Assembly: GCF_003611585.1 (NCBI RefSeq)
Contig: NZ_RAVW01000068.1
Location: 1 to 29,627, forward strand
Direction: 5' to 3'
Source of the DNA: Corallococcus exercitus
GTDB taxonomy: Bacteria; Myxococcota; Myxococcia; Myxococcales; Myxococcaceae
Length of the DNA stretch: 29,627 bases
Each line of letters begins with the position of its first letter. Position 1 is the first letter of the stretch. Made by a program: the position numbers and the translations under genes. Shown piece after piece: positions 8,261 through 23,024 of the stretch. The notes beneath the pieces are model-generated. The model had not been told where the DNA came from and did not search any database. It saw only the letters and a program-made list of their open reading frames with translations.

Positions 8261-9018
8261 GCACGCGAAAAAAGCTGACACTCATCACCTACGCCCCTGC
8301 CCTCGTGGGCAAAGACAGCCGCACGCTCAATGTCATCCATGGAATGGAGAATGCGTTCCCTGGCTTACGACTGGAGTGGGAAGTTGGCGAAAGTGGGCGC
8401 CCCATCGCGTTGCCACAGCGTGACACCTGGCTCGTGGAAAGAATCGAGGACGGTGGATTCCCGGTCGTGTGCAACGGGGACGAACGTTACCCCGTGACGG
8501 TCTGGGCAATTGAAAGCTCAGGGCTCTCCAGTCCAGGCGGACAGCCCCAATTTGAAGTGCACGCAAAACTGCCACTGGACGGGCCCGTGGTCGCGGCAGC
8601 GGCGGCTCTGCTTGAGGCCGTGGCGGAGGGGGCACGGTCGTTCTGGGGTCATGCGTCGCCGTATGGCTACGGCTCAGAGGTCGCGCAGCAGTTCCGCCGC
8701 TCGCCAGACGACCCCGAGCGTTCACCCCGTGGGCTTCCAATGCTCAACCTTCCGGAGAAGAGCCCCAGGGCGGAGACTCCCTCTTTCCTCGGGTGGCTGA
8801 ACTATTGGTCCGCGGCTGCCGCGGAGGTCATCGGGTTCCCGGATCCTGCTCGCGATGCCGAGTTGCTCACGCGGGCACGTCGCACTCCGTCAGGCGGGTG
8901 GATCGTGCAGCTCACGGATGCACCGCTTGATTACGACAACCCCACTCACCTGGAAGCGCTCAAGCGGGCCTATGAGCGCTTCCCGGTGATTGGCGGGCGC
9001 ACAGCGCCTCGACTGTGA
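8257..9018 (+). CDS. Putative cognate immunity protein (translationally coupled to upstream toxin gene)
   Basis: ATGA start/stop overlap with the upstream gene (ATG 8257-8259 / TGA 8258-8260). Low GC in the 5' half. No signal peptide. No known catalytic motif. Confidence 0.6.
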   Translation: MSTRKKLTLITYAPALVGKDSRTLNVIHGMENAFPGLRLEWEVGESGRPIALPQRDTWLVERIEDGGFPVVCNGDERYPVTVWAIESSGLSSPGGQPQFEVHAKLPLDGPVVAAAAALLEAVAEGARSFWGHASPYGYGSEVAQQFRRSPDDPERSPRGLPMLNLPEKSPRAETPSFLGWLNYWSAAAAEVIGFPDPARDAELLTRARRTPSGGWIVQLTDAPLDYDNPTHLEALKRAYERFPVIGGRTAPRL

Positions 9019-9019
9019 C

Positions 9020-9709
9020 TCAGCCGCGAGCGGCCCGTGCGTCGCGGCCCCGGGCGCGGGCGGCCTTGGAGAGCACGTCGCTCCCCTTCTCCTCGCCCTT
9101 CATCCACGCCTTCATCGCGGGCACCACCTGCTTGCTCCAGGCGCGGCCGGCGCGCATGGGCAGGAAGTCCTGCACCAGCGCGTCCACGAGCCCGGAGAGC
9201 TGCTCGGTCAGCTCCAGCCGTTCGGAGAGCTGATCATCCTCTTCCTCGGTCATCAGCGCGGGCAGCTTGGCGGCGCGGATGTCCAGGAACTCGGAATCGA
9301 GGGTGACTTCGTATTCGCGCTCGCCGTGCGAGATGCGCAGCCGCGCCTGGGACACCAGCAGGCCCCGGTCCAGCGAGTGGCGAACGTTCTCCGAGTACGG
9401 CGCCAGCGTGCCCTTGGCGCTCATCTCCGTGACGTCGCCGGCCACGCCGCGCAGCACCACCTTGCCCAGGAAGAGGACGACCACGCCCGCGCCGTCGAAC
9501 TCCACGAGGGGGTCACCCGACTCCGAGCGCCACAACAGCCACGTCATGAACTCGCGGCCCAGGTAGGCCCGGCCGCGCAGCAGCTGTTCGCGGGCCTTGC
9601 CCTTTTCGACTTCGGCTTCGTCCTTCTCCTCCTCGGTGGCGACGCCATCCACGCCAACATCGCCCCGTGCGAACGCCGCCTCTTCCCTCGCCTGCTCACG
9701 CTTCGCCAT
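9020..9709 (-). CDS. rdgC: RdgC-like recombination-associated protein, C-terminal portion (gene apparently split by frameshift)
   Basis: Recalled similarity of the C-terminal ~100 aa to the E. coli RdgC C-terminal region; acidic linker after MAKREQ. Starts 13 nt inside the end of the preceding RdgC N-terminal ORF, in another frame. Confidence 0.45.
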   Translation of the reverse strand: MAKREQAREEAAFARGDVGVDGVATEEEKDEAEVEKGKAREQLLRGRAYLGREFMTWLLWRSESGDPLVEFDGAGVVVLFLGKVVLRGVAGDVTEMSAKGTLAPYSENVRHSLDRGLLVSQARLRISHGEREYEVTLDSEFLDIRAAKLPALMTEEEDDQLSERLELTEQLSGLVDALVQDFLPMRAGRAWSKQVVPAMKAWMKGEEKGSDVLSKAARARGRDARAARG

Positions 9710-10497: not shown

Positions 10498-12021
10498 ATG
10501 ACACTCCCAGGCACGCGACATACGGTGGCCGCCGCCATGCGCCGCGCCCTCTTCCCCGCCAGCGTTGCCCTCTTCCTGTCCGCCTGCACCCACGCGCCCG
10601 CCACGCCGGACGGCGCCCCGCGTAACACCCTGCCCGGGGTGACGAACGCCCTGCTGGGGACCCTGGAGGCGGACGGGGCGATCACCGGCGCCTATGTGGT
10701 GGATGCACGCACCGGGGAGCCCCTCTTCACCCACCGGGAGAACGTGCGGCTGTTGCCCGCGTCCACGATGAAGGTGGTGTCCACCTCCGCCGCGCTGTCC
10801 GCGCTGGGGGCGGACTTCCGCTTCGTGACGCCGGTGTCCCTGGAGGGCTCGCAGACGGGAGGCCTGTTCCTGGGCGACGTGGTGGCGCAGGCGTCCGGGG
10901 ACCCGTCGCTGGGCTCGTGGCGCTTCCCGGAGACGGCGCTCGCGTGCGACCGCATCGCGGAAGCCTTCCAGGCTCGCGGCATCCACCAGTGGCGCGGCAA
11001 CGTGCGCATCGCCGGCACGGACGGCGTGGATGGCGGCCTGGGCCCCGGCTGGGCCTGGGACGACGCGGCGTATGCCTACAGCGCGGCGCCCACGCCCTTC
11101 GTCTTCCGCGAGAACGTGGTGGACCTGGCGCTGGCACGCGCTCCCGGCGCCACCTGCGCGGACGCGCCTTCCGTCCAGTGGACCCCCACCTTCGCCACGC
11201 TGTCCGCGGTGGTGAACGTGGACGTCAACGCGGAGCGCACGAACCTGGCCTGCGTGCGCGGCGGTGGCGGCGTGCGCTGCACCTGGCGCTCGCCCTCCGG
11301 TGGGCCGTGCCCCCAGTCCGCCGCGGTGAAGCTGTCCGTGGACGCGCCGGAGGCCCTCTTCGCCGCGTGCGTGGACGACGCGCTGGCGCGGCACGGGGTG
11401 ACGCGGCTGCCGCTCTCGCTGGAGGCCCCCACCTCGCCCATGCCGCCGGTGCCGGTGCCGCTGGTGGAGCTGACCAGCCCGCCCCTGTCGGAGCTGGTGC
11501 GCGCGACGAACAAGGAGAGCCTCAACCTGTACGCGGAGCGGCTGGGCATGCGCTTCGCGCGCGAGCGCACCGGCAACGAGGGCTACGCCGCGCTGCGCAC
11601 GGCCCTGGTCGCGGAGCTGACGCGCCGGGGCGTGCCGTCCAAGGACCTGCGCCCGGTGGATGGCAGCGGCCTGTCCCGCTACAACCTGGCGTCGCCCCGG
11701 GGCATGGCGCGGGTGCTGCTCACCAGCCTCCAGGAGCCCTACGGCGCCGCGCTGGTGGACAGCCTGCCGGTGCTGGGCGTGGACGGGACGCTCGCGGGCC
11801 GCAAGACGACGCTGTCCACCGCGGGCCGCATCCGCGCGAAGACGGGAACGCTCACGGGCCAGAAGTGCTTCGTGGGCGTGGCGGAGCGGCCCAACGACCC
11901 GGAGCACCCGCGCGTCGTCTTCGCGCTGATGCTCGGCAACATGGACGAGGGCACGAAGCCCAACGCCAATGAGACCTTCGACACCTTCTCCACCGCCCTG
12001 GTGGAGCTGCCCCTGCGATGA
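10498..12021 (+). CDS. dacB: D-alanyl-D-alanine carboxypeptidase/endopeptidase, PBP4 (peptidase S13) family lipoprotein
   Basis: Lipobox: MRRALFPASVALFLSAC. S13 signature AITGAYVVDARTGEPLF...LLPASTMKV (SxxK), then LSRYNLASPRGM, KTGTL. The ATG at 10498 starts the ORF as MTLPG..; MRRALF (10537) is an alternative. The ORF-track entry 10150 is extended upstream. Confidence 0.85.
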   Translation: MTLPGTRHTVAAAMRRALFPASVALFLSACTHAPATPDGAPRNTLPGVTNALLGTLEADGAITGAYVVDARTGEPLFTHRENVRLLPASTMKVVSTSAALSALGADFRFVTPVSLEGSQTGGLFLGDVVAQASGDPSLGSWRFPETALACDRIAEAFQARGIHQWRGNVRIAGTDGVDGGLGPGWAWDDAAYAYSAAPTPFVFRENVVDLALARAPGATCADAPSVQWTPTFATLSAVVNVDVNAERTNLACVRGGGGVRCTWRSPSGGPCPQSAAVKLSVDAPEALFAACVDDALARHGVTRLPLSLEAPTSPMPPVPVPLVELTSPPLSELVRATNKESLNLYAERLGMRFARERTGNEGYAALRTALVAELTRRGVPSKDLRPVDGSGLSRYNLASPRGMARVLLTSLQEPYGAALVDSLPVLGVDGTLAGRKTTLSTAGRIRAKTGTLTGQKCFVGVAERPNDPEHPRVVFALMLGNMDEGTKPNANETFDTFSTALVELPLR

Positions 12022-12058
12022 GCGTCCCGCAGGGGACCACCCGCATGCGAGGTGAAAC

Positions 12059-14239
12059 ATGAAGTCCAGAATCGCAGTGACGACCGCCGCGCTGATGCTG
12101 CCGCTCGTGGCGGCAGCCGCCGGCAAGGCGCCCGCGAAGCCCGCCGCCGCGGAGAAGCAGCCCGTGGAGACCACCTACCACGGCACCACCGTGTCGGACC
12201 CGTACCAGTGGATGGAGTCCGCCACCGACCCCAAGGTCCAGCAGTGGACCGACTCGCAGAACACATACACGCGCGCGTACCTGGACAAGCTCCCCGGCCG
12301 CGAGCCGCTGCGCCAGCGCATCACGGAGATCCTGTCCTGGAAGTCGCCCGGCTACGGCGGCCTGGACGAGCAGGGCGGCACGCTGCTGGGGCTGAAGTAC
12401 CAGCCGCCCAAGCAGCAGCCCACGCTCATCGTGGTGGGCTCGCTGGACGACACGTCGAAGGAGCGCGTGCTGGTGGACCCCACGGTGGTGGACACCTCCG
12501 GCAAGACGACCATCGACTGGTTCCAGCTGTCACACGACGGCAAGAAGGTCGCGGTCTCCATGTCCAAGAGCGGCACGGAGAGCGGTGACGTCACGGTGTG
12601 GGACGTGGCCACGGCGAAGGCGGTGCCCAACGAGCTGGTGCCCCGCGTCAACAGCGGCACGGCGGGCGGCAGCCTCGCGTGGAACGCGCAGGGCACGGGC
12701 TTCTTCTACACGCGCCATCCCCGCGGCGAGGAGCGCCCGCCCGCGGACCGCGACGTGTACCAGCAGGTGTACTTCCACACGCTGGGCACGCCCACGGAGA
12801 AGGACACGTACGCGCTGGGCAAGGACTTCCCGCGCATCGCGATGACGGAGCTGGAGTCCAGCGACGACGGCCAGTACACCTTCGCGCGCGTGGCCAACGG
12901 CGACGGCGGCGAGTACGACCTGTACCTGCACGGCCCCAAGGGCACCTGGACGCAGGTGGCGAAGTACGCGGACAAGGTGGTGGCGGCGCGCTTCGGCGGC
13001 GACGGCGCGGCGTACCTGCTCAGCCGCAAGGACGCCCCGAAGGGCAAGGTGCTGCGCCTGCCGCTGGCCACGCCCACGCTGGACAAGGCCACCGTCATCG
13101 TCCCGGAGGGCGAGGCGACGGTGCAGGCCGTGGTGCCGACGAAGAGCCGCCTGTACCTGCTGGAGCAGCTGGGCGGTCCGTCGCAGCTGCGCATGGTGGA
13201 CCTGACGGGCAAGGCCCTGGGGCTGGTGCCCACGCTGCCGGTGTCGTCGGTGGGCGGCCTGGTCCGCCAGGGCGCGGACGACCTGCTCGTCGTCAACGGC
13301 AGCTTCACCCAGCCGGCCGCGTGGTTCCGCTACTCGGCGGAGGGCAACAAGCTCACGAAGACGGCGCTGGCTCGCACGGCGCCCGTCGACATGAGCGACG
13401 TGGAGGTGGTGCGCACGGAGGCCACGTCCAAGGACGGCACCAAGGTGCCGCTCACCATCCTGAAGAAGAAGGGCACGAAGCTGAACGGGAACAACCCCAC
13501 GCTGCTCACCGGCTACGGCGGCTTCAACGTCTCCATCTCCCCGGGCTACAACCCGGTCACCGGCATGTGGCTGGAGCAGGGCGGCGTGTTCGCGGTGGCG
13601 AACCTGCGCGGCGGCTCGGAGTTCGGCGAGGAGTGGCACAAGGGCGGCTCGCTCACGAAGAAGCAGAACGTGTTCGACGACTTCTACGCGTGCGCGAAGC
13701 TGCTGGTGGACCAGAAGTACACGCAGCCGAAGAAGCTGGCCATCCAGGGCGGCAGCAACGGCGGCCTGCTGATGGGCGCGGCCCTGACGCAGCACCCGGA
13801 GCAGTACGGCGCGGTGGTGGCGCGCGTCGGCATCTACGACATGCTGCGCACGGAGCTGACGCCCAACGGCCAGTTCAACGTCACCGAGTACGGCTCGGTG
13901 AAGGACCCGGAGCAGTTCAAGGCGCTGTACAACTACTCGCCGGTGCACCAGGTGAAGGACGGGACGAAGTACCCGTCGGTGCTCTTCACGTCCGGGGCCA
14001 ATGACCCGCGCGTGGATCCGTACCACTCGCGCAAGATGGTGGCCCGGATGCAGGCGGCGACGGCGTCCCCCAAGCCCATCCTGCTGCGCGCCGACGCGGA
14101 GACGGGCCACGGCCTGGGCACGCCGCTGGCCGCGCGCATCGAGGAGGAGGTGGACGTCTACTCCTTCGTCTTCAACGAGCTGGGCATGACGTACAAGCCC
14201 AACGCGACGAAGAAGGTCAGCGCGCCCGCGCCGAAGTAG
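12059..14239 (+). CDS. Secreted prolyl oligopeptidase (peptidase S9A), paralogue of the Myxococcus xanthus prolyl endopeptidase
   Basis: Signal peptide MKSRIAVTTAALMLPLVAAAAG. TYHGTTVSDPYQWME (vs MX PEP LHGVQVADPYRWLE). KKQNVFDDFYACAKLLVDQKYTQPKKLAIQGGSNGGLLMGAALTQHPEQYGAVV is near-identical in pattern to MX PEP, including GGSNGG. Begins 37 bp after dacB, so probably an operon. Confidence 0.9.
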   Translation: MKSRIAVTTAALMLPLVAAAAGKAPAKPAAAEKQPVETTYHGTTVSDPYQWMESATDPKVQQWTDSQNTYTRAYLDKLPGREPLRQRITEILSWKSPGYGGLDEQGGTLLGLKYQPPKQQPTLIVVGSLDDTSKERVLVDPTVVDTSGKTTIDWFQLSHDGKKVAVSMSKSGTESGDVTVWDVATAKAVPNELVPRVNSGTAGGSLAWNAQGTGFFYTRHPRGEERPPADRDVYQQVYFHTLGTPTEKDTYALGKDFPRIAMTELESSDDGQYTFARVANGDGGEYDLYLHGPKGTWTQVAKYADKVVAARFGGDGAAYLLSRKDAPKGKVLRLPLATPTLDKATVIVPEGEATVQAVVPTKSRLYLLEQLGGPSQLRMVDLTGKALGLVPTLPVSSVGGLVRQGADDLLVVNGSFTQPAAWFRYSAEGNKLTKTALARTAPVDMSDVEVVRTEATSKDGTKVPLTILKKKGTKLNGNNPTLLTGYGGFNVSISPGYNPVTGMWLEQGGVFAVANLRGGSEFGEEWHKGGSLTKKQNVFDDFYACAKLLVDQKYTQPKKLAIQGGSNGGLLMGAALTQHPEQYGAVVARVGIYDMLRTELTPNGQFNVTEYGSVKDPEQFKALYNYSPVHQVKDGTKYPSVLFTSGANDPRVDPYHSRKMVARMQAATASPKPILLRADAETGHGLGTPLAARIEEEVDVYSFVFNELGMTYKPNATKKVSAPAPK

Positions 14240-14256
14240 TCCTGCTTCTCCACACG

Positions 14257-14301
14257 CCCGTCTCCCGAGCCCCAGGGCTTGGAGACGGGCGTTTCTTCTT
14301 C
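14257..14301 (+). terminator. Rho-independent terminator after the peptidase operon
   Basis: CCCGTCTCC-(15 nt)-GGAGACGGG followed by GTTTCTTCTTCC, immediately after the 14239 stop. Confidence 0.65.
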
Positions 14302-14328
14302 CCTGTTTCGTGGCAGCCTGCCGCCCCC

Positions 14329-14766
14329 ATGAGCCCGCTCATCCCCTACTTCATCCTTTCGCCCGTGGTCGCGGGCGGCCTTGCCTGGTGGACGCTCACC
14401 CGCCTTGGAAAGAAGCGGAACGCCCGCGCGAAGGGTTCGCTCGACGCGGTGGTGACGCGGCTGCGAGGGCAGAAGGCCACCGGCACGGCGGACCTCTTCG
14501 TCCAGGACGTGTCCTGGTCCGGAGAGACGGAGCTGTCGCCGCAGAACTGCCGCATCCGCGTGGTGATGGGCGGCCGGGACGCCGCGAGCATTCCTCCGCG
14601 CTTCGAGGTGGAGAGCGCACCGGGAGCCCCCCGCCCGCCCGCGGACGTGCTCGCGGCGCTGCGGGTGCTGGATGCGCAGGCGACGGAGGCCCTGAAGTCC
14701 GGCGGCTGGAGCTGGCAGCGGCCCACGGTGTCCTTCGAGCCAGTGAAGGCACCTCCCTCGGCATGA
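14329..14766 (+). CDS. Hypothetical protein with one N-terminal TM helix
   Basis: LIPYFILSPVVAGGLAWWTLTRL hydrophobic segment. High-GC codon usage. No recognisable domains. Confidence 0.55.
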   Translation: MSPLIPYFILSPVVAGGLAWWTLTRLGKKRNARAKGSLDAVVTRLRGQKATGTADLFVQDVSWSGETELSPQNCRIRVVMGGRDAASIPPRFEVESAPGAPRPPADVLAALRVLDAQATEALKSGGWSWQRPTVSFEPVKAPPSA

Positions 14767-14962
14767 AGGGGAGGGGCTCACTAGCGCCAAGCGACGGAAT
14801 ACTCGGCGCTTGCGGCAAACTCCGCGCCGAACTCTGCGCGACTAAAATACGACTACTCTCAAGACAACTCAGATCCGGGCTATATCCACCGGGCCTCTGA
14901 ATTCATCTCACGAGAAAGTCTCCCCCGATAAGAGCAACTCACATCGGCAGTTCCCCGAAACC

Positions 14963-15814
14963 ATGACAATAGCGGCCGCCTGGATCCGCCAGACGAAAAC
15001 TGTTCAAGAGCTTTTCATCGCATCAGATAGCCGACTTTCTGGAGGCATGCGTTGGGATCAGTGCCCCAAAATATTGGTACTTCCTAGATCAGACTGCGCG
15101 ATCTGCTTTGCTGGAGATACCGGCTACACATATCCACTAATGCTACAGCTGGCGAACGCAATCGATGCCTTTGAAAAATCCCGTACGCGCGCCGACGACA
15201 TTCGAAAATTGCGTGGCCATGTCGTCAAAACATTTAACGCACTATACGATGCAATTAAGGGCCAAGCTCCCGGCGAAGATGCGGCGGGGACTGAGTTTCT
15301 ATTAGCAGGCTACTCGTGGGTTTCAAAAGAGTTCAAGATCTGGAAGATCGCGTACAACAAGACCGAGAAGAAATTCGTCCACATTACTCCCAGGGCTCTA
15401 CTTGGCACACAGCTTCGAGTTGTTGAGTTTGCTGGCGACTGGGCGCCCATCGCTCGCAACAGACTAAGAACCCTGATGAAAACCCGTCTTGGTCCTCCAC
15501 CCCTGAAACGATGGAGAGGCCTTGACATGGAACCGCTAGAAGTCATTCGAGACCTGCTTCGTAGCAGCGGCCCTGATGACACCATTGGCGGCGCACCACA
15601 AGTCGTAAAGATTTTCCAACATCTCAATGCTCGCCCATACATAATCCCATGGATACATGAGGGGAAAACAATTCATACCCTTTTTGGACGGCACCTACTC
15701 CCATACGAAACTACTCGCCTTGGCATTCTAGATGTGGACACGATGCAGACATCTAGGCATGGCCTAAAAAATCCAACCACGCAAGAAAGGCATATTTTCT
15801 CCTATTCCTTTTAA
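14963..15814 (+). CDS. Proteasome-beta/HslV-like N-terminal-nucleophile (Ntn) hydrolase-fold protein with ~100-aa C-terminal extension (islet gene)
   Basis: MTIAAAW (Thr directly after Met, as for a Thr1 nucleophile). [13 protein letters not shown] and [35 protein letters not shown] resemble HslV TTIVSVRR..VVIAGDGQATLGN and [36 protein letters not shown] resembles the proteasome LLVGGYD motif. Lies in a visibly AT-richer region. Confidence 0.55.
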   Translation: [283 protein letters not shown]

Positions 15815-15844
15815 TCGCAACAAGAACGACACGATTATCGGAGA

Positions 15845-15870
15845 GGGAAACATGAGGGTTTCCCTTATCT
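15845..15870 (+). terminator. Hairpin downstream of the Ntn-like gene
   Basis: GGGAAAC-atgag-GGTTTCCC followed by TTATCT. Confidence 0.4.
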
Positions 15871-15946
15871 AGCAAGTCAATCAGCGTGCGTTCGCCCGGT
15901 CGCTGCGTGCGACGACACTGGCGCACGGGCAGAGAGGAAGGCCACC

Positions 15947-16460
15947 ATGACGCGCAAGGAGGCCATCCACAAAGAGCAAGTGCGAGCGTTCTTGACGGAG
16001 GCTTTCGAGGACGACCTGTACGTCAACCGAATCCTCTTCCTCTCACACACGCCCATGGGCGGCACAGACCACCAGTCTGTCCGTAGCGGTCATTGGCAAG
16101 GCCATGGCGTGGGCACGGGACGAGGACGACACCTCCAAGCATGCCGTGAAGCAAGTGGACCACCTGCTGTCCAATGGGAGCTTCGAGGTCTGGAAGCTGT
16201 TCGATGCCTGTATGCTTCGTGCTGGCCGAGCGCACTGAGTCGTGACAATGACAGGGAACCGCATCTTGATCACGCCTACGGCAGCAAGGACACTGCCCCC
16301 GAAGCATCTCGTCCACGCACGGGCGGAGCGCCACCACCACCTACCGGAGTCGGTTCCTACCCAGGAAAGGCGAAGGTCTGTGCGCGGTTTGAGCATCAGG
16401 CTCCCCGAAGTTGAGTGCGTTGCCTGCCGCCCGCACAGCGGAACTTCTGTGACGGGCTGA
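15947..16460 (+). pseudogene. Decayed gene remnant spread over three reading frames (at least two frameshifts)
   Basis: Frame a: MTRKEAIHKEQVRAFLTEAFEDDLYVNRILFLSHTPMGG. Frame b: VIGKAMAWARDEDDTSKHAVKQVDHLLSNGSFEVWKLFDACMLRAGRAH. Frame c: MTGNRILITPTAARTLPPKHLVHARAE.... Each piece looks protein-like, but they are not colinear in one frame. Confidence 0.35.
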
Positions 16461-16503
16461 GGAATGCAGCGCCACCATGCGCCGCATGTCCTCGTCCTTC
16501 CTC
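16417..16503 (+). repeat. Direct repeat copy 1 (87 nt): diverged duplicate of the 5'UTR + first 10 codons (MRRMSS[S/T]FL) of the downstream alanine-racemase-fold gene
   Basis: Gap-free alignment with 17514-17600, 69/87 identical (by-eye count). Core CATGCGCCGCATGTCCTCG[T/A]CCTTCCTC is 29/30 identical. Confidence 0.7.
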
Positions 16504-16622
16504 AAGTCGCCCCCCTCACATGGGGAGAGGTCTTGCCCCCATCCAATGTGGGCGACTTTAATGCAGCAGCAAAGGAACGGGCGAACTGCTCTCGCAACTG
16601 ACCAGCGCGCCTCCAGCTCTCT

Positions 16623-17420
16623 ATGTCCGACCTTACCAAGTTTGAGATGCGTCAATTCGAGCGGCTGTTCGGGATGAGTTCCGGCTACGTGCTAAATTTT
16701 TCAAACCGAACATTCGAAGACTTCATTGCCGATAGCGCAAAAAGAATTATCTCCGAACCAAAGTATTACAGACACTCCGGTTCTAAAGCCAATCGACTGC
16801 GGGCCTTCTGGGAAGTAGAACCTAATCATGTCGTCGGAAAGCTTTCAGCCGACTTACTGGACTACACTCGCATCGAAAAGCTCATTGAGAACAAGGACCT
16901 ATTCGACTCCTGCCAAAAGATCGCCCAGCGCCTTCTCCATGATGCGCCGGCAATCAACATCGACGCCTTGACGCCAGTATCAACGGAAAGAGAGTTCGAA
17001 GCACTTGTGAATGCTGTCAAAATCTCAATCGAAAACAACGAACCGGAGTCGGCACTGGATCGGCTTCACACATTTTTCATCAAGTACTTACGACTCGTTT
17101 GCAGCGGCCGAAAAATCTCTATCGATAGAGAGAAGCCGCTCCACAGCCTGATGGGCGAGTACATCAAGGCACTAAAGCAGCAAAACGCGATCGAATCAGA
17201 AATGACCGAACGCATCCTCAAGTCAACCATTAGCCACCTGGACGCATTCAGCCGCGTCCGCAACGAACAAAGCCTCGCCCATGACAATAGAATGCTAAAT
17301 TACGAAGAAAGCCTACTCATCTTCAATCAAGTAACGAGCACCGTCAGGTTCATCCGTGCCATAGAAGATCGCTTGGCAAAGCAGGCTGCTCCAGTGGCCG
17401 ACGATGACATCCCCTTCTGA
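16623..17420 (+). CDS. AbiJ-like abortive-infection protein: N-terminal AbiJ-NTD-like domain + C-terminal HEPN (Abi_C) domain
   Basis: Visibly the lowest GC in the window. C-terminal SRVRNEQSLAHD fits the HEPN Rx4-6H motif (R-NEQSLA-H). Overall size and layout match the AbiJ / Abi_C family. Bracketed by the 87-nt direct repeats. Confidence 0.55.
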   Translation: MSDLTKFEMRQFERLFGMSSGYVLNFSNRTFEDFIADSAKRIISEPKYYRHSGSKANRLRAFWEVEPNHVVGKLSADLLDYTRIEKLIENKDLFDSCQKIAQRLLHDAPAINIDALTPVSTEREFEALVNAVKISIENNEPESALDRLHTFFIKYLRLVCSGRKISIDREKPLHSLMGEYIKALKQQNAIESEMTERILKSTISHLDAFSRVRNEQSLAHDNRMLNYEESLLIFNQVTSTVRFIRAIEDRLAKQAAPVADDDIPF

Positions 17421-17513
17421 CTCCAGTTCTACAGATCCGAACTCAGGCAGAACGATGGAGCCGCAGCCTGCTTGCCCCTGAGTTTCTGGCGATGTAACTG
17501 GCAGGGCTTGATG

Positions 17514-17600
17514 GTTGGTTGCAGCGTTGCCTGCCGCACGTCCGGCGGGATTCGGGTGACGGGTCGGGAAACGCGGTGCCAGCATGCGCCGCATGTCCTC
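17514..17600 (+). repeat. Direct repeat copy 2 (native 5' end of the alanine-racemase-fold gene)
   Basis: See copy 1. Contains the functional ATG at 17584. Confidence 0.7.
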
Positions 17601-18678
17601 GACCTTCCTCGATACGCTCGACACGCCCGCCGCCATCGTGGACCTGGCCCGCGTGGAGCGGAACCTCCAGCGCGTCGCGACCTACGCTCGCGAGCACGGC
17701 CTGCGCTGGCGTCCCCATACGAAGACGCACAAGACGGCGGAGCTGGGCGCGATGCAGGTCGCGGCGGGAGCCACCGGCGTCACGGTGGCCACCGTCCTGG
17801 AAGCCGAGGTCATGGCTTCGGTGTCCGACGACGTGCTGCTCGCGTACCCGCCGGTGGGCGAGCGCAAGCTGGCGCGGCTGATGGCCCTGCCTTCGCGCGT
17901 GCGGCTCACCGTGGCGCTCGACTCCCATGACGTGCTGGAGGGCCTGGCGCGCGCGGCCCGGGACGCGGGGCGCACCGTGGGCGTGCTCGTGGAGGTGGAC
18001 CTGGGCATGCGCCGCGTCGGGCTGCGCACGCCGGAGGAGACCGTGGCCCTGGCACGCGCGGCGGCCTCCACGCCTGGCGTGGCGTTTCGCGGGGTGACGT
18101 TCTACGCGGGCCACATCCGCATCCCCCAGGCGGAGCTGCCTTCCGCGATGGGCGCCCAGTCGGCAGCACTGGCGACGTTCGTGGGCGCATTGAGCGACGC
18201 GGGCCTGCCGCCGGAGGTGGTCAGCGGCGGCTCCACGCCGACCCTCTGGCAATCCCATACCGTGAAGGGCCTCACGGAGATCCGCCCGGGACTCAATGCG
18301 CTGAACGACCGCAACGCGGCGGTCATCGGCGCCTGTGATTGGACGGAGTGCGCCTATTCCGTGCTGGCCACCGTGGTGAGTACGGCCGTGCCCGGCCAGG
18401 TGGTCATCGACGCGGGGGCCAAGGCGCTGGTGAAGGAGGAAGGGCTGGCGCCGGGCTATGGCGTCCTGCTGGACCGGCCAGAGGTCGTGGTGAAGAACCT
18501 GTCGGAGGAGCACGGCCTGCTGGACGTGTCCGGCACGACGTGGCGCCCCCGCATCGGCGAGCGGGTGCGCGTGGTGCCCAACCATGTCTGTGTTTCTGTC
18601 CCCCAGCATCCCCGGCTGTACGTCGTGCGCGGCGACACGCACGTGGCCACGTGGGAGGTCGCGGCACGCGGCTGGTGA
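17584..18678 (+). CDS. PLP-dependent alanine racemase-fold (fold type III) enzyme, D-serine dehydratase-like / D-threonine aldolase family
   Basis: LRWRPHTKTHKTAELG (PHxKxHK PLP-lysine motif of the DSD1/D-TA family). Ala_racemase_N-like N-terminus. C-terminal beta-domain. Confidence 0.8.
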   Translation: MRRMSSTFLDTLDTPAAIVDLARVERNLQRVATYAREHGLRWRPHTKTHKTAELGAMQVAAGATGVTVATVLEAEVMASVSDDVLLAYPPVGERKLARLMALPSRVRLTVALDSHDVLEGLARAARDAGRTVGVLVEVDLGMRRVGLRTPEETVALARAAASTPGVAFRGVTFYAGHIRIPQAELPSAMGAQSAALATFVGALSDAGLPPEVVSGGSTPTLWQSHTVKGLTEIRPGLNALNDRNAAVIGACDWTECAYSVLATVVSTAVPGQVVIDAGAKALVKEEGLAPGYGVLLDRPEVVVKNLSEEHGLLDVSGTTWRPRIGERVRVVPNHVCVSVPQHPRLYVVRGDTHVATWEVAARGW

Positions 18679-18688
18679 ACCCCGCGCC

Positions 18689-19684
18689 TCAGACGATGCG
18701 CTGCAGCTCCTGCGTCAGCATCTCCTCCAGGTGCCGGATGTTCCGGTAGACGAGGCACCGGTAGCTGGACACATCGAAGCGCAGCTCCTTCACGTCGCGC
18801 ACCAGCATCAGGGTGGGCTTGCCGCGTCCCCAGGCGTAACCCACCTCCAGGTAGACATTGGGGTTCGCCAATGACAGGTCCGCGATGACGACCTTCGCGG
18901 TGTCGATGCGGTCCCGGATGCGCTGGATGATGGGACCGTCGAAGATGGCCTGATCCACGCGCTCGCACAGGAGCCCGGCCGACTTCACCGGATTCAGGAT
19001 GCCGTAGTGGTAGGTGTCCTCCAGCTCCGGCGCGAAGGGCATCGCCACGAAGGCGTGGGGCTTCTCGTTGGAGTTCGCGCCCGCGGAAGCCATGGGCGGC
19101 GCCTGGACGAAGCGGGACGTCCGCCGGACGCGGAAGCCCGTGGCCCCCATCAGCGGCTCCACGCCCGGCGTGAGCCCCAGCCCCAGCGCGATGGCCTTGC
19201 GCAGCCGCTCCACGCGCTTCGGGTTCAGCTCCACCACCGTGATGCGCTCCAGGTTGCGCGGGCCGCTGCCGCGCTGGAACGCGTCCACGAAGCCGCCCAC
19301 CAGGGCCAGCACGGCCTCGTCCTCATCCAGCCCGTAGTTGGGGCCGTGCACCGTGCACGCGAGGTGACGCACCTCGTGCCGGGGCTCCAGGAGCTGGAGC
19401 GCGCGCACGGAGAACTGGCGGATCTCGTGGTAGCCGAACTGGCGCAGGCGCACCGTGCCCAGGAAGAGCACCAGCGGAGCGCCCAGGCTCCTGCGCGTGT
19501 CGATGAAGCGGTGGTCCCCGGGGAGCAGGTCGAAGGCGTCCATGGCCACGCCCGCCGCCTCCAGCCGGCGCGACACCGCGCCGTCCGCCCCGTGGAAGCC
19601 CTGCGCGTACTTCAGCAGCACGGCATCCGCGGCCGTCTCCCCCACGTCCCCCAGGTCCACCACGACGTCCAGCGTGTCTCCCAT
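18689..19684 (-). CDS. Two-domain protein: N-terminal Macro-like (ADP-ribose-binding) domain + C-terminal SLOG / nucleoside 2-deoxyribosyltransferase-like Rossmannoid domain (ThsA-like architecture)
   Basis: Macro: VVVDLGDVGETAADAVLLKYAQGFHGADGAVSRRLEAAG vs the consensus VxGDITxxxxDAIVNAANxxLxxGGGVxxAIxxAAG. C-terminal: FVAMPF...KVVIADLSLANPNVYLEVGYAWGRGKPTLML, the NDT/SLOG-type pattern (AD...E.GYA..GKP). Confidence 0.7.
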   Translation of the reverse strand: MGDTLDVVVDLGDVGETAADAVLLKYAQGFHGADGAVSRRLEAAGVAMDAFDLLPGDHRFIDTRRSLGAPLVLFLGTVRLRQFGYHEIRQFSVRALQLLEPRHEVRHLACTVHGPNYGLDEDEAVLALVGGFVDAFQRGSGPRNLERITVVELNPKRVERLRKAIALGLGLTPGVEPLMGATGFRVRRTSRFVQAPPMASAGANSNEKPHAFVAMPFAPELEDTYHYGILNPVKSAGLLCERVDQAIFDGPIIQRIRDRIDTAKVVIADLSLANPNVYLEVGYAWGRGKPTLMLVRDVKELRFDVSSYRCLVYRNIRHLEEMLTQELQRIV

Positions 19685-19898
19685 GGGCCCGGGACTGTAG
19701 GGCGTCCCGGTCCAACCACGCCATCCCCCGCGCCCGTCGCCGTGCGTCAGGAGGGCGAAACACAGACGTTGCCAAAGCAGGTCAATCCCTGTTCAATGAC
19801 GCCTTGCGCCTGCCTGGCTGTCTTTCAGGCCACCACCGCGCTGCCTGTGAAGCACTTCACAGTTTCCGCCCGGGCGTCCCGGGTAGCATTTGGGCACC

Positions 19899-20792: not shown

Positions 20793-20966
20793 TCCGCCGT
20801 CCTGCGCCGTCCCGCTTTGTACCCTCCGAGAGCGTCTGGCTTCACCCGGAGAGGAAATGCTTCATCCCAGACAGACAATCGCCCTGCGAAAGCAGTTGTC
20901 TGTCCAACACCTCACGGCTGGTATTGGGAATGCAATCACGCCACTCCGGAGCAACCGGGAGGCGTC

Positions 20967-22979
20967 ATGCAAGGCAGGGCTGTGCGTTGGGGCAGGAGAA
21001 GTCTGGGGTGGCTGTCCGCGTTGGTGCTGTGCACGCATTGCGGTGGAGTGGCGGAACAGGAGCAGGCAGGACCGGAGGCCGCGGCGCCTCCGGAAGCGGT
21101 GAAGGCAGCACCGCTGGCGACGGGATGCATCTCCGAGACGATCTACGAGACCTTTGGAAGCCGGCGGGAGGGTGACGCGTACGTGGACGCCGCCCGGCCG
21201 ACGACGAACTTCGGGAACGACCCGTTGCTCCTGGTGGATGGCTCGCCCCAGCTGGCGTCGTACATGAAGTTCAGCGTGACGAATGACGACGCGTACTTCC
21301 CCATCGTCGGGGCGACGCTGAACATGTCCGTCCTGGATGGCAGCACGGATGGGCCCGCCCTCTACCGCACCAGCACCGGGTGGAGCGAGGACACGCTGAC
21401 CTGGAACACGCGGCCCGCGCCACAGGGTGACCCGCTGGGAGACCTGGGCAACGTGGAGAGCAACACCTGGGTGACGTACGACGTGAGCGCCGCGGTCCGG
21501 AGCTCGGGCGAATACGCCTTCGCGCTCCTGCCCACCGGCGGCAACGGCGTGGACATCGAGTCCGAAGAATCCAGGAACATCGGCCCCATGTTGAACCTCA
21601 CGCGCGCCATCACGTACTGCTCGCGCCAGGGCACGGGCGGCGCACTGCAGGGGGTCTGGAAGTACGGCGGCCCGGGAGAGGAGATGCCCTCCGCGGTGGC
21701 CGCCGCTCCCGATGGCGGCTGGGTCGTCGCGGCGCGCTTCTACACCTCCGGTGACTTCGGCGGAGGGCCGGTGAATGCCCCCGCGTACCTGGTGCTCGCG
21801 AAGTACGGCCCGGACGGGTCGCATCAGTGGTCGCGCAGCTACGTGCCCTTCGTCACCGGAGGCGTGCCGGACATCACCGTGGGCGGGTTGGCGGTGACGT
21901 CGCTCGGCAACATCCTCATCGCGGGCTCGTACTCCGGCAGCCCCGACCTGGGGACGGGGGCCCTGCCGGCGACCTACGGGAACATGCCGGGCGTCTTCAT
22001 CGCGAAGTATTCGCCCAATGGCACGCCGGTCTGGTCCAAGGGCTTCCTCGCGGGGACCCCGCAGGTCGGCTCCTTGGAGAAGGTCCCCGCCCGGGCGTTG
22101 GCCGTCGCCACGGACGCTTCCGGAAGCCTCATCGTCACGGGCAGGTTCAGCGGGCAGATGGACCTGGGAGGCGGCGTGCTGGACTCCGGCGCCACCGTGG
22201 CGGGCCGGGAGGCGCTCTTCGTCGCGCGCTTCTCGTGGGAGGGGCAGCACCTGTGGTCGCGCGTCCATGGGGCCGGGAACACAGGCTCCGAGGGCCAGGC
22301 GCTCGCCACGGACAGCACCGGCGCGGTGCTGCTCGCGGGCGTCGCGAGCCCCCACCCCACCAACACCCCGCTGGGGGTCCAGGGTCCCCGGACGCCCTTC
22401 GTGGCGAAGTACTCGCCCACGGGCGCGCTCCAGTGGTCCCGCGCGCTCAACGGCGGCCAGGGCACCATGCGGGGCGTCGTCGCGCGGCCCGGGGACGCCG
22501 TGGCCTTCACCGCCACCTTCACCGGCAGCTTCCCCTTCGCGGGGCGCACCTATAGCGCCAGCCTGGATGATCCGTACCTCAGCCGCACGGACATCATCCT
22601 GGGCGCGCTGTCGGCGTACGGCTCGGACCAGTGGGGACGGCAGCTGGGCGATCCCCAGACCGGAGACCGGGCCTTTCAATTGGGCGTGGATGGCCAGGGC
22701 CGGCTGACGCTGCGGGGCGACCTGTCCGCGCAGGTGGACCTGGGTGGAGGCCCCATCGGCCACCCGCGCTACGTGTCGAACTTCGTGTCGCGGTACGCGG
22801 CGGACGGCTCTCACCTGTGGTCGCGGGGCATGGACCCGAACCTCACGCCCGTCATGGCCGTCAACAGCGCAGGGGAGACCATGATCGCCAACCACCTCTT
22901 CCGGACGGGCACGGTGGAGGGGACGTTCCATACCGCCAACGGTCCTGGCGACCTGCTGCTGCTGAAGCTCGCGCCGTAG
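20967..22979 (+). CDS. Secreted/lipoprotein with N-terminal DNRLRE-type carbohydrate-binding-like domain and SBBP beta-propeller repeats
   Basis: GGGAGG RBS then ATG 20967. Signal peptide with C-rich end (LVLCTHCGG). TGWSEDTLTWNTRP (DNRLRE/malectin-like motif). Repeated ...YGPDGSHQWSR.. / YSPNGTPVWSK / YSPTGALQWSR / YAADGSHLWSR units typical of the myxobacterial SBBP repeat. Confidence 0.8.
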   Translation: MQGRAVRWGRRSLGWLSALVLCTHCGGVAEQEQAGPEAAAPPEAVKAAPLATGCISETIYETFGSRREGDAYVDAARPTTNFGNDPLLLVDGSPQLASYMKFSVTNDDAYFPIVGATLNMSVLDGSTDGPALYRTSTGWSEDTLTWNTRPAPQGDPLGDLGNVESNTWVTYDVSAAVRSSGEYAFALLPTGGNGVDIESEESRNIGPMLNLTRAITYCSRQGTGGALQGVWKYGGPGEEMPSAVAAAPDGGWVVAARFYTSGDFGGGPVNAPAYLVLAKYGPDGSHQWSRSYVPFVTGGVPDITVGGLAVTSLGNILIAGSYSGSPDLGTGALPATYGNMPGVFIAKYSPNGTPVWSKGFLAGTPQVGSLEKVPARALAVATDASGSLIVTGRFSGQMDLGGGVLDSGATVAGREALFVARFSWEGQHLWSRVHGAGNTGSEGQALATDSTGAVLLAGVASPHPTNTPLGVQGPRTPFVAKYSPTGALQWSRALNGGQGTMRGVVARPGDAVAFTATFTGSFPFAGRTYSASLDDPYLSRTDIILGALSAYGSDQWGRQLGDPQTGDRAFQLGVDGQGRLTLRGDLSAQVDLGGGPIGHPRYVSNFVSRYAADGSHLWSRGMDPNLTPVMAVNSAGETMIANHLFRTGTVEGTFHTANGPGDLLLLKLAP

Positions 22980-22994
22980 GCACCGCTTCACCCT

Positions 22995-23024
22995 GGAGGC
23001 CCGCGGCCGTGAGCGCGGGCCTCC
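22995..23024. terminator. Perfect 10-bp-stem hairpin between convergent genes
   Basis: GGAGGCCCGC-ggccgtgagc-GCGGGCCTCC. Confidence 0.55.

Follow-up and report, generated by a model that had tools for sequence, protein, structure and literature searches.

Imperfect direct repeats flank an abortive-infection gene of the Abi_C family in the 29,627-nucleotide stretch of Corallococcus exercitus DNA analyzed here (NCBI RefSeq assembly GCF_003611585.1, contig NZ_RAVW01000068.1; hereafter the window). A preliminary description had read these repeats as the footprint of a mobile cassette, for example one placed by site-specific integration, at the 5' end of the downstream gene, which encodes a D-serine-dehydratase-like (DSD) protein. 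The gene-proximal copy of the repeat is the strain's own DNA, and the other copy lies inside a larger, mosaic islet. This islet occupies an intergenic spot at which gene content turns over across the genus, and neither an integrase nor attachment-site (att) features accompany it. The feature adds one more case to a known type of event, namely a relic flank within a mosaic islet that lacks an integrase. On balance, and with modest confidence, we favor a history in which stepwise homology-guided recombination stacked the modules of the islet and left the upstream copy at a seam between them as the non-functional 5' relic of a DSD gene from a foreign lineage. The foreign origin of that copy, the order of events, and the recombination route are what we infer from the comparisons below.

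Repeat pair and extent of the inserted DNA

A repeat search across positions 15500-18500 returned a single long two-copy direct-repeat family: an ungapped pair of 94-nt segments at 16417-16510 (copy 1) and 17524-17617 (copy 2), both on the forward strand, identical at 73 of 94 positions (78%) and spaced by 1107. When the whole window was compared with itself by blastn, the same pair was the top-ranked internal repeat (79.3% over 87 nt, E = 5.7e-15). The repeat search and the significance of the self-comparison exclude chance similarity as the source of the repeat. The repeat claimed in the preliminary description is therefore real; its first copy was placed correctly, while its second copy (17514-17600) was set 10 nt too low, the true partner of 16417-16503 being 17524-17610. 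The edges of the repeat are sharp, given that the 60 nt flanking each side of both copies are unrelated. The exact core common to both copies is CATGCGCCGCATGTCCTCG (19 nt), followed after one mismatch by CCTTCCTC.

Each copy comprises a 60-nt intergenic region and the first 11 codons of a DSD-like gene. Translation of the open reading frames (ORFs) opened by the two copies confirmed that both begin MRRMSS[S/T]FL, as previously proposed. Copy 2 provides the real start of the resident gene (17584-18678, forward strand), which is intact, encodes a 364-aa protein with an alanine-racemase fold (Pfam Ala_racemase_N, 3e-27; D-ser_dehydrat, 4e-23), and shares 98% amino-acid identity with its counterpart in the conspecific strain C. 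exercitus SDU142 (locus L001). Copy 1 is a diverged relic with an orphan start: the ORF that it opens (16477-16677, forward strand) encodes 66 aa, enters the Abi_C gene out of frame, and has no family match in Pfam. The two copies do bracket the Abi_C gene at 16623-17420. No regulatory RNA or riboswitch was recognized in the repeated leader by Rfam at E ≤ 1.

We compared the window with syntenic DSD loci from 12 Corallococcus-type genomes and from other Myxococcaceae; the sampling comprised one genome per species and totaled 58 genome loci and 18 metagenome loci. Alignment of positions 12000-19700 with the related loci by blastn delimited two synteny blocks, of which the left runs to 14741-14750 and the right starts at 17521-17590. 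In C. aberystwythensis (L003), Corallococcus sp. RDP092CA (L005), and C. coralloides (L006), these blocks lie only 8-24 bp apart, and a few bases after the stop codon of the upstream gene GCGTTGCCTGCC opens the 60-nt DSD leader. The upstream gene (14329-14766, forward strand) encodes a conserved 145-aa protein and forms the left anchor of the spot, as the DSD gene forms the right; its synteny with L001-L011 stops at 14741-14750, and its last few codons and stop come from the inserted DNA (EPATAR* at the end of the C. aberystwythensis protein vs EPVKAPPSA* in the window).

The DNA absent from the three empty sites is hence an islet of about 2.77 kb (c. 14750-17520). Host DNA has a GC content of about 70%; between about 14800 and 17500 this drops to 44-62%, with two blocks of about 50% parted by one of about 61%. 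Copy 1 sits 1.67 kb within this unit of about 2.77 kb and thus does not form its left edge, so that the DNA lacking from the empty sites is not delimited by the two repeats. This alignment counters the proposal that a cassette was inserted with the repeats as its bounds. The related claim that the Abi_C gene marks a discrete inserted unit holds as regards its foreignness, but the unit absent from the empty sites is larger and has copy 1 inside it. Outside copy 1, the islet matched nothing in the 58 genome loci by blastn or tblastx; plasmid DNA gave weak matches within the Abi_C ORF only, and phage DNA gave none. A candidate boundary motif common to the left edge of the islet (14745-14775) and that of the Abi_C module (16503-16530) was rejected, its local score being equaled in 58 of 500 shuffles.

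Identity of the two copies

Comparison with the empty sites identifies the native copy. Copy 2 matches the C. aberystwythensis empty site at 94.7% over all 94 nt, and its 34-nt coding part is 100% identical to that of SDU142; it is the strain's own DSD 5' region over its whole length. Copy 1 shares 78-80% identity with both copy 2 and the C. aberystwythensis site, and less with all other loci. The difference is also seen in the upstream 60 nt alone, where identity to the C. aberystwythensis empty site is 93% for copy 2 and 72-73% for copy 1. The preliminary description had suggested that the cassette supplied or duplicated the 5' end of the gene. Duplication of the start stands, while supply does not, given that the gene-proximal copy is native.

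The divergence of copy 1 extends through the entire segment. The 21 mismatches with copy 2 occur along its whole length and on both sides of the core, sparing the leftmost 14 nt and the 19-nt core around the start codon. Among 22 variable columns, 17 substitutions are unique to copy 1, with copy 2 and C. aberystwythensis agreeing. The substitution spectrum is balanced for a sequence of 69% GC (nine GC->AT and five AT->GC changes), and copy 1 still has 66% GC. Without its first 14 nt, the upstream part of copy 1 is roughly equidistant from the window, C. aberystwythensis, and RDP092CA (59-65%). The same 60 nt compared between species are 83% identical for the window and RDP092CA and 58% identical for the window and C. 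coralloides. The divergence of copy 1 is like the distance between species of the genus. By these comparisons, copy 1 looks like the orthologous DSD leader of another Corallococcus lineage and not like a freshly made duplicate.

The preliminary description had noted a near-perfect 30-nt core within the repeat. Its near-identity is confirmed (exact over 19 nt, with more after one mismatch); as an att-type core it fails, coinciding as it does with a conserved gene start. The sequence GCCAGCATGCGCCGCATG is nearly unchanged at the nine closest Corallococcus DSD starts (L001-L009, with 1-nt variants in L001 and L009) and is replaced or altered in L002/L004 and in L010/L011/L049 (L049 being C. terminator CA054A). 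Since the core is the start of the gene and nearly unchanged in L001-L009, its near-identity between the copies is explained by purifying selection. Moreover, each copy is homogeneous on both sides of the core, which argues against a crossover there, be it site-specific or homologous, as this would make both copies chimeric (copy 1 native upstream and foreign downstream, and copy 2 the other way round). In L002 and L004 (9995-10010), other codons stand in place of the first three of the DSD gene (MRR), leaving only the second ATG (M4 of MRRMSSTFL); because of this, the true DSD start may be 17593 rather than 17584.

The only unexpected identity is that of the leftmost block, GCGTTGCCTGCCGC, which is identical at 14 of 14 positions between the copies and in C. 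aberystwythensis, at 10 of 14 in RDP092CA, and is unrecognizable in C. coralloides. The remaining 46 nt of the upstream region are identical at 29 positions (63%), and we estimate the probability of a run of at least 14 matches within 60 nt at about 0.03. This is weak evidence that a recombination joint may lie at the left edge of the repeat. We also considered the block as a dispersed recombination site and rejected this, since in the window and 82 fetched loci it was found only in the two copies and the native C. aberystwythensis site.

Mosaic make-up of the islet and turnover at the spot

From left to right, the islet holds a 283-aa gene (module A), a transposase relic, a spacer, copy 1, and the Abi_C module (module B). 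The 283-aa gene (14963-15814, forward strand, about 50% GC) encodes a protein with a proteasome-beta-like fold of the N-terminal nucleophile (Ntn) hydrolases. Its AlphaFold model (pLDDT 89) matches proteasome beta subunits in Foldseek with probability 1.0 and a target TM-score of about 0.7; searches of Pfam, NCBIfam, PADLOC, and PHROG gave no match. We found 430 homologues, distributed among Bacillus, Desulfovibrio, and metagenomes; outside this strain none exceeds 51% identity, and the entries identical at 100% all come from C. exercitus (two contigs). The family alignment shows invariant M1-T2, D22-S23-R24, K36, S118, and D159. Homologues often lie near defense-like genes (Peptidase_M78 with DUF4411, an SLFN-like helicase, DUF4062-TPR), and the family is possibly a new group of defense-associated Ntn hydrolases. 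As a widespread, unannotated, proteasome-like family in defense-like neighborhoods, it is probably a more promising lead than the repeat itself.

The transposase relic (15962-16242, forward strand) is an N-terminal, frameshifted, and truncated remnant of an IS4-family transposase. Frame-by-frame tblastn showed that it is spread over three reading frames, retains about 95 codons of a protein of about 384 aa, and stops before the first catalytic Asp. Its closest relative (72-80% identity) is P0241, a 119-aa truncated ORF of Corallococcus sp. EGB that itself matches NF033591 (IS4, 1.3e-08) and plasmid IS4 transposases at 50% identity. The spacer that follows (16243-16416, about 62% GC) had no significant match to the transposase, the fetched loci, plasmids, or phages. 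Exact-protein look-ups of the Abi_C protein, the 283-aa protein, and P0241 returned no record.

The Abi_C gene (16623-17420, forward strand, about 49% GC) belongs to the HEPN-type abortive-infection proteins. Its product matches PF14355 over residues 174-244 (1.1e-11), and the R-x6-H motif RNEQSLAH can be read directly in its translation. This family assignment replaces the earlier label of AbiJ-like: neither an AbiJ model in PADLOC, where only a weak, sub-threshold Csn2 match was obtained (E = 0.0056), nor an AbiJ N-terminal domain in Pfam was matched, and the label should be Abi_C family. No solved structural relative was found, and a scan with the Abi_C protein detected no relatives in viral contigs. 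The gene is foreign, as the preliminary description held: its GC content of 49% contrasts with about 70% in the host, records of its protein at 100% identity are confined to C. exercitus (two contigs, which, like those carrying the 283-aa matches, are no longer than 30.7 kb), and its DNA matches nothing in the 58 genome loci. The next best protein match, at 71%, adjoins a type I restriction-modification operon, and DNA similarity of the module to this relative is confined to the ORF. None of the fetched Corallococcus and Pyxidicoccus loci carries the module at this site. To the right of the gene, a spacer (17421-17523) shows no similarity to anything fetched. To the left, an imperfect hairpin with 22-nt arms that are 77% complementary (16504-16558) sits at the breakpoint where DSD homology ends. 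It was rejected as an attC-like site or terminator, as it folds no better than shuffled sequences (z = -1.3) and lacks core motifs.

The only trace of mobility in the islet is the decayed IS4 fragment. No integrase or recombinase was detected by Pfam, NCBIfam, or PADLOC in the three main islet ORFs (the 283-aa ORF, a 155-aa ORF, and Abi_C), and no recombinase was found by Pfam in the orphan 66-aa ORF or in 10 other large ORFs of the window. The window has no tRNA gene and no intI. Cores of the attC type (RYYYAAC ... GTTRRRY) are absent; the hairpin arms, AAGTCGC.../...GCGACTT, are without these motifs. Neither significant terminal inverted repeats nor short target duplications were detected in the islet, and a 12-nt pair at 15890/16575, considered as the terminal inverted repeat of an insertion sequence (IS), was at chance level.

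The short intergenic spot between the 145-aa and DSD genes is a place of gene-content turnover across the genus. Across 14 Corallococcus and Pyxidicoccus loci, the interval between this conserved gene pair is either empty or filled with one of at least six different contents, so that the suggested insertion hot spot is borne out if taken to mean high gene turnover. In SDU142, the interval is 480 bp and carries a small predicted lipoprotein gene (about 92 aa, judged by eye from the sequence). L002 and L004 have two GC-rich ORFs that, from their translations alone, resemble a TetR-type regulator and an aldo-keto reductase, the first being in opposite orientation in the two loci. A common stretch of 1.8-1.9 kb (88-95% DNA identity) with a conserved 250-aa ORF occupies the interval in L010, L011, and C. 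terminator. The Pyxidicoccus interval is about 6 kb with several large ORFs, and those of L007-L009 are 72-164 bp. Right-hand junctions fall between -60 and +6 relative to the DSD ATG. Most contents are high-GC ORFs resembling ordinary genes rather than mobile cassettes, and low-GC cargo is present only in the strain studied here.

A second piece of the anchor gene occurs at this spot in C. terminator, which carries about 1.46 kb more than L010 and L011 in the form of an extra module. The module has a hydrolase-like ORF; of the two such ORFs listed for this locus, one lies upstream of the 250-aa ORF in the stretch shared with L010 and L011 (both judged from translations alone). At its right edge is a 192-nt internal DSD fragment (8878-9069; residues 183-245) that matches the resident gene of C. 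terminator at 92% identity and the L011 gene at 90%. With a DSD fragment at a module seam here as well, pieces of the anchor gene have been left at seams at this spot at least twice independently.

Variation was also seen elsewhere in and around the window. Immediately past the DSD gene's stop codon (18678/18689) is a second indel point, where inserts of about 1.2-1.3 kb are present in L003, L006, L010, L011, and L049 and absent from the window, L001, L002, L004, and L005. The insert of C. aberystwythensis (11224-12390) encodes a 388-aa protein with a secreted, beta-helix-like look, as judged by eye from the sequence. The next gene of the window (18689-19684, reverse strand) encodes a 331-aa protein with a C-terminal TIR or nucleoside-deoxyribosyltransferase-like domain (PADLOC TIR effector, 2e-13; PF05014 below cut-off). 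Its DNA aligns at 86-97% in all 12 Corallococcus-type loci (L001-L011 and L049), so this TIR-like gene is not strain-specific cargo. A third variable segment (about 20800-23000, forward strand) comprises a 720-aa CBM96-domain gene that is 69-86% identical in L001 and missing from L003, L004, L005, and L006. To the left of the islet, a second variable, lower-GC segment (about 7272-9020) contains an adjacent pair of genes for DUF6310 and DUF5953 proteins (6749-9018, forward strand); L003 and L005 lack this segment, and in L001 it is diverged. A gene at 4839-7118 (reverse strand) encodes a 759-aa bacterial vault-protein homologue with Major Vault Protein repeat and shoulder domains (Pfam, 1e-7 to 1e-45).

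Proposed history and rival explanations

In the history that we favor, the islet would have been built from at least four pieces of different origin: the Ntn-hydrolase-like gene, the IS4 fragment, copy 1, and the Abi_C/HEPN gene. Copy 1 would have been brought in with foreign DNA that formerly adjoined the DSD gene of a previous host and would now mark the seam between the two modules. The incoming DNA may have recombined in a homology-guided and partly illegitimate manner, either as a circle by single crossover or as a linear molecule by homology-facilitated illegitimate insertion, with the joint at or near the leftmost 14-nt block that is identical in both copies and not at the start-codon core. 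By one route, a circle comprising the previous host's DSD leader and the Abi_C module would have entered through a single crossover at this block, in a recipient that already held module A and the IS relic. By the other, a linear fragment comprising module A, the IS relic, and the donor's DSD leader would have been anchored in the left flank and illegitimately joined beside a resident Abi_C module. Flank-identity profiles do not separate these routes: whichever pair of loci is compared, the 145-aa gene proves variable, and the left flank has a mosaic make-up in all species.

Several observations weigh against this history. Neither a donor genome nor an intermediate arrangement was found among the 58 genome and 18 metagenome loci, and when metagenomes were scanned for the gene-start core and for DSD relatives, nothing related at the Corallococcus level emerged; with no donor found, the case for a foreign lineage comes down to how far copy 1 has diverged. 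A block of 14 identical nt is short for a RecA-dependent crossover. The left flank has no clearly donor-like stretch by the junction, the 145-aa gene being variable in all pairs, and the DSD fragment of C. terminator is internal to the gene and not its 5' end, so that the two cases are not identical. Furthermore, copy 1 is nearest to copy 2 and C. aberystwythensis and has the clade-specific MSS[S/T]FL, which would also fit duplication in situ followed by decay. Such a partial duplication of the strain's own intergenic region and first 11 DSD codons, made as DNA was inserted or by local rearrangement afterward, with the upstream copy then released from selection and drifting to 78%, is the strongest of the alternatives, although we still consider it unlikely. 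It accounts for copy 1 ranking the relatives as copy 2 does (L003 > L001 > L005 > L006) and keeping the start of its clade, and C. terminator shows that local DSD fragments closely similar to the resident gene (92%) do arise at this spot. However, unique substitutions amount to about 18% of copy 1, compared to flank differences of 3-5% from the conspecific SDU142, and the two foreign genes still have 49-50% GC in a genome of 70%; that they have not drifted toward the host composition argues that the insertion is recent. In addition, copy 1 shares states with C. aberystwythensis or SDU142 that are absent from copy 2 at sites 16434, 16460, and arguably 16462, and its balanced substitution spectrum is not that of decay.

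Site-specific integration would account for a single-gene module of foreign composition being framed by direct repeats that share an exact core of 19 nt. Under this scenario, an integrase encoded elsewhere moved the Abi_C cassette, the copies are attL and attR, and a core of 19-28 nt is the site of crossover. We judge this improbable, and the footprint originally proposed is not borne out. No integrase or recombinase was found in the part of the genome searched, namely the islet and the large ORFs of the 29.6-kb window; the window has no tRNA gene, and the islet has no attC site or terminal inverted repeat. Nor are the copies half native and half element. With integration, the upstream arm should be native in copy 1 and derived from the element in copy 2, and the opposite is observed (72-73% vs 93%). 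The divergence of copy 1 continues downstream of the core, the core itself is the start of the gene and nearly unchanged in L001-L009, the DNA to the left of copy 1 is more of the islet and not native flank, and the Abi_C module occurs at the site in no fetched Corallococcus or Pyxidicoccus locus. We give similarly little credence to IS-mediated assembly, by which the IS4 element now seen as the relic at 15962-16242 would have moved adjacent DNA, including the DSD 5' fragment, through composite or one-ended transposition or adjacent deletion and then decayed. A genuine IS4 remnant does lie within the islet, 175 nt to the left of copy 1, and its closest relative is from a Corallococcus genome. 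Against this, the transposase is reduced to a quarter-length remnant of about 95 codons of about 384, neither terminal inverted repeats nor short target duplications were found, and IS4-type transposition yields target duplications of about 9-12 bp, compared with a 94-nt repeat of 78% identity. Least probable by our reckoning is that the 94-nt DSD leader, perhaps with its left 14-nt block and the hairpin, serves as the docking site of an undescribed cassette-capture system that acts in trans or without an integrase. If this were true, single-gene defense cassettes would be stacked repeatedly upstream of the DSD gene in Corallococcus, each carrying a copy of the docking site of its previous host.

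Known systems resemble the islet to different degrees. Sequential displacement by homology-facilitated illegitimate recombination leaves orphan fragments in the effector-immunity arrays of type VI secretion systems (T6SS) and in arrays of Rhs and contact-dependent inhibition (CDI) genes (PMC5361080). As in those of Vibrio cholerae T6SS and Rhs/CDI orphan arrays (PMC5361080), modules are stacked by a conserved anchor gene without an integrase, an older and diverged fragment of the anchor gene is displaced and kept as a dead relic at the seam, and DNA from several lineages makes up a mosaic locus. In contrast to these arrays, the anchor here is the 5' end of a housekeeping-type enzyme gene and not a toxin gene, the relic is found on its upstream and not its downstream side, single genes unrelated to each other take the place of cognate pairs as modules, and intermediates were not found in other strains. 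Homologous recombination among natural myxobacterial strains has been documented (PMC5030687). The Abi_C protein, for its part, shares with lactococcal AbiJ and HEPN proteins (PMC3710099) a C-terminal Abi_C domain (PF14355) with an R-x6-H motif, but differs from AbiJ in having neither the PADLOC match nor the N-terminal domain of that protein in Pfam.

Islands that phages and integrative and conjugative elements (ICEs) form at the ends of tRNA or protein genes likewise have a gene-end direct repeat that flanks foreign DNA and leaves the target gene intact. In the present case, however, an integrase is lacking, the gene-proximal copy is the strain's own and not supplied by the element, and the repeats are only 78% identical, with identity peaking where the gene is conserved, and do not bound the full indel. 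Chromosomal gene-flux or defense hot spots between conserved core genes are a general concept. The spot described here conforms to this in that the same conserved pair flanks different accessory genes in different strains and species, here including an Abi-family gene, but it is very small (0-6 kb) and in most Corallococcus species holds ordinary-looking, high-GC genes and not defense genes.

These findings show that an att-like repeat can instead be a relic flank. Three checks overturned the integration reading: alignment with empty sites, determination of which copy is native, and recognition that the core is a conserved part of a gene. They also document a small myxobacterial variable spot at which foreign defense-type genes are stacked without an integrase, and suggest that recombination with DNA of related species, and not dedicated mobile elements, delivers such genes at this spot.

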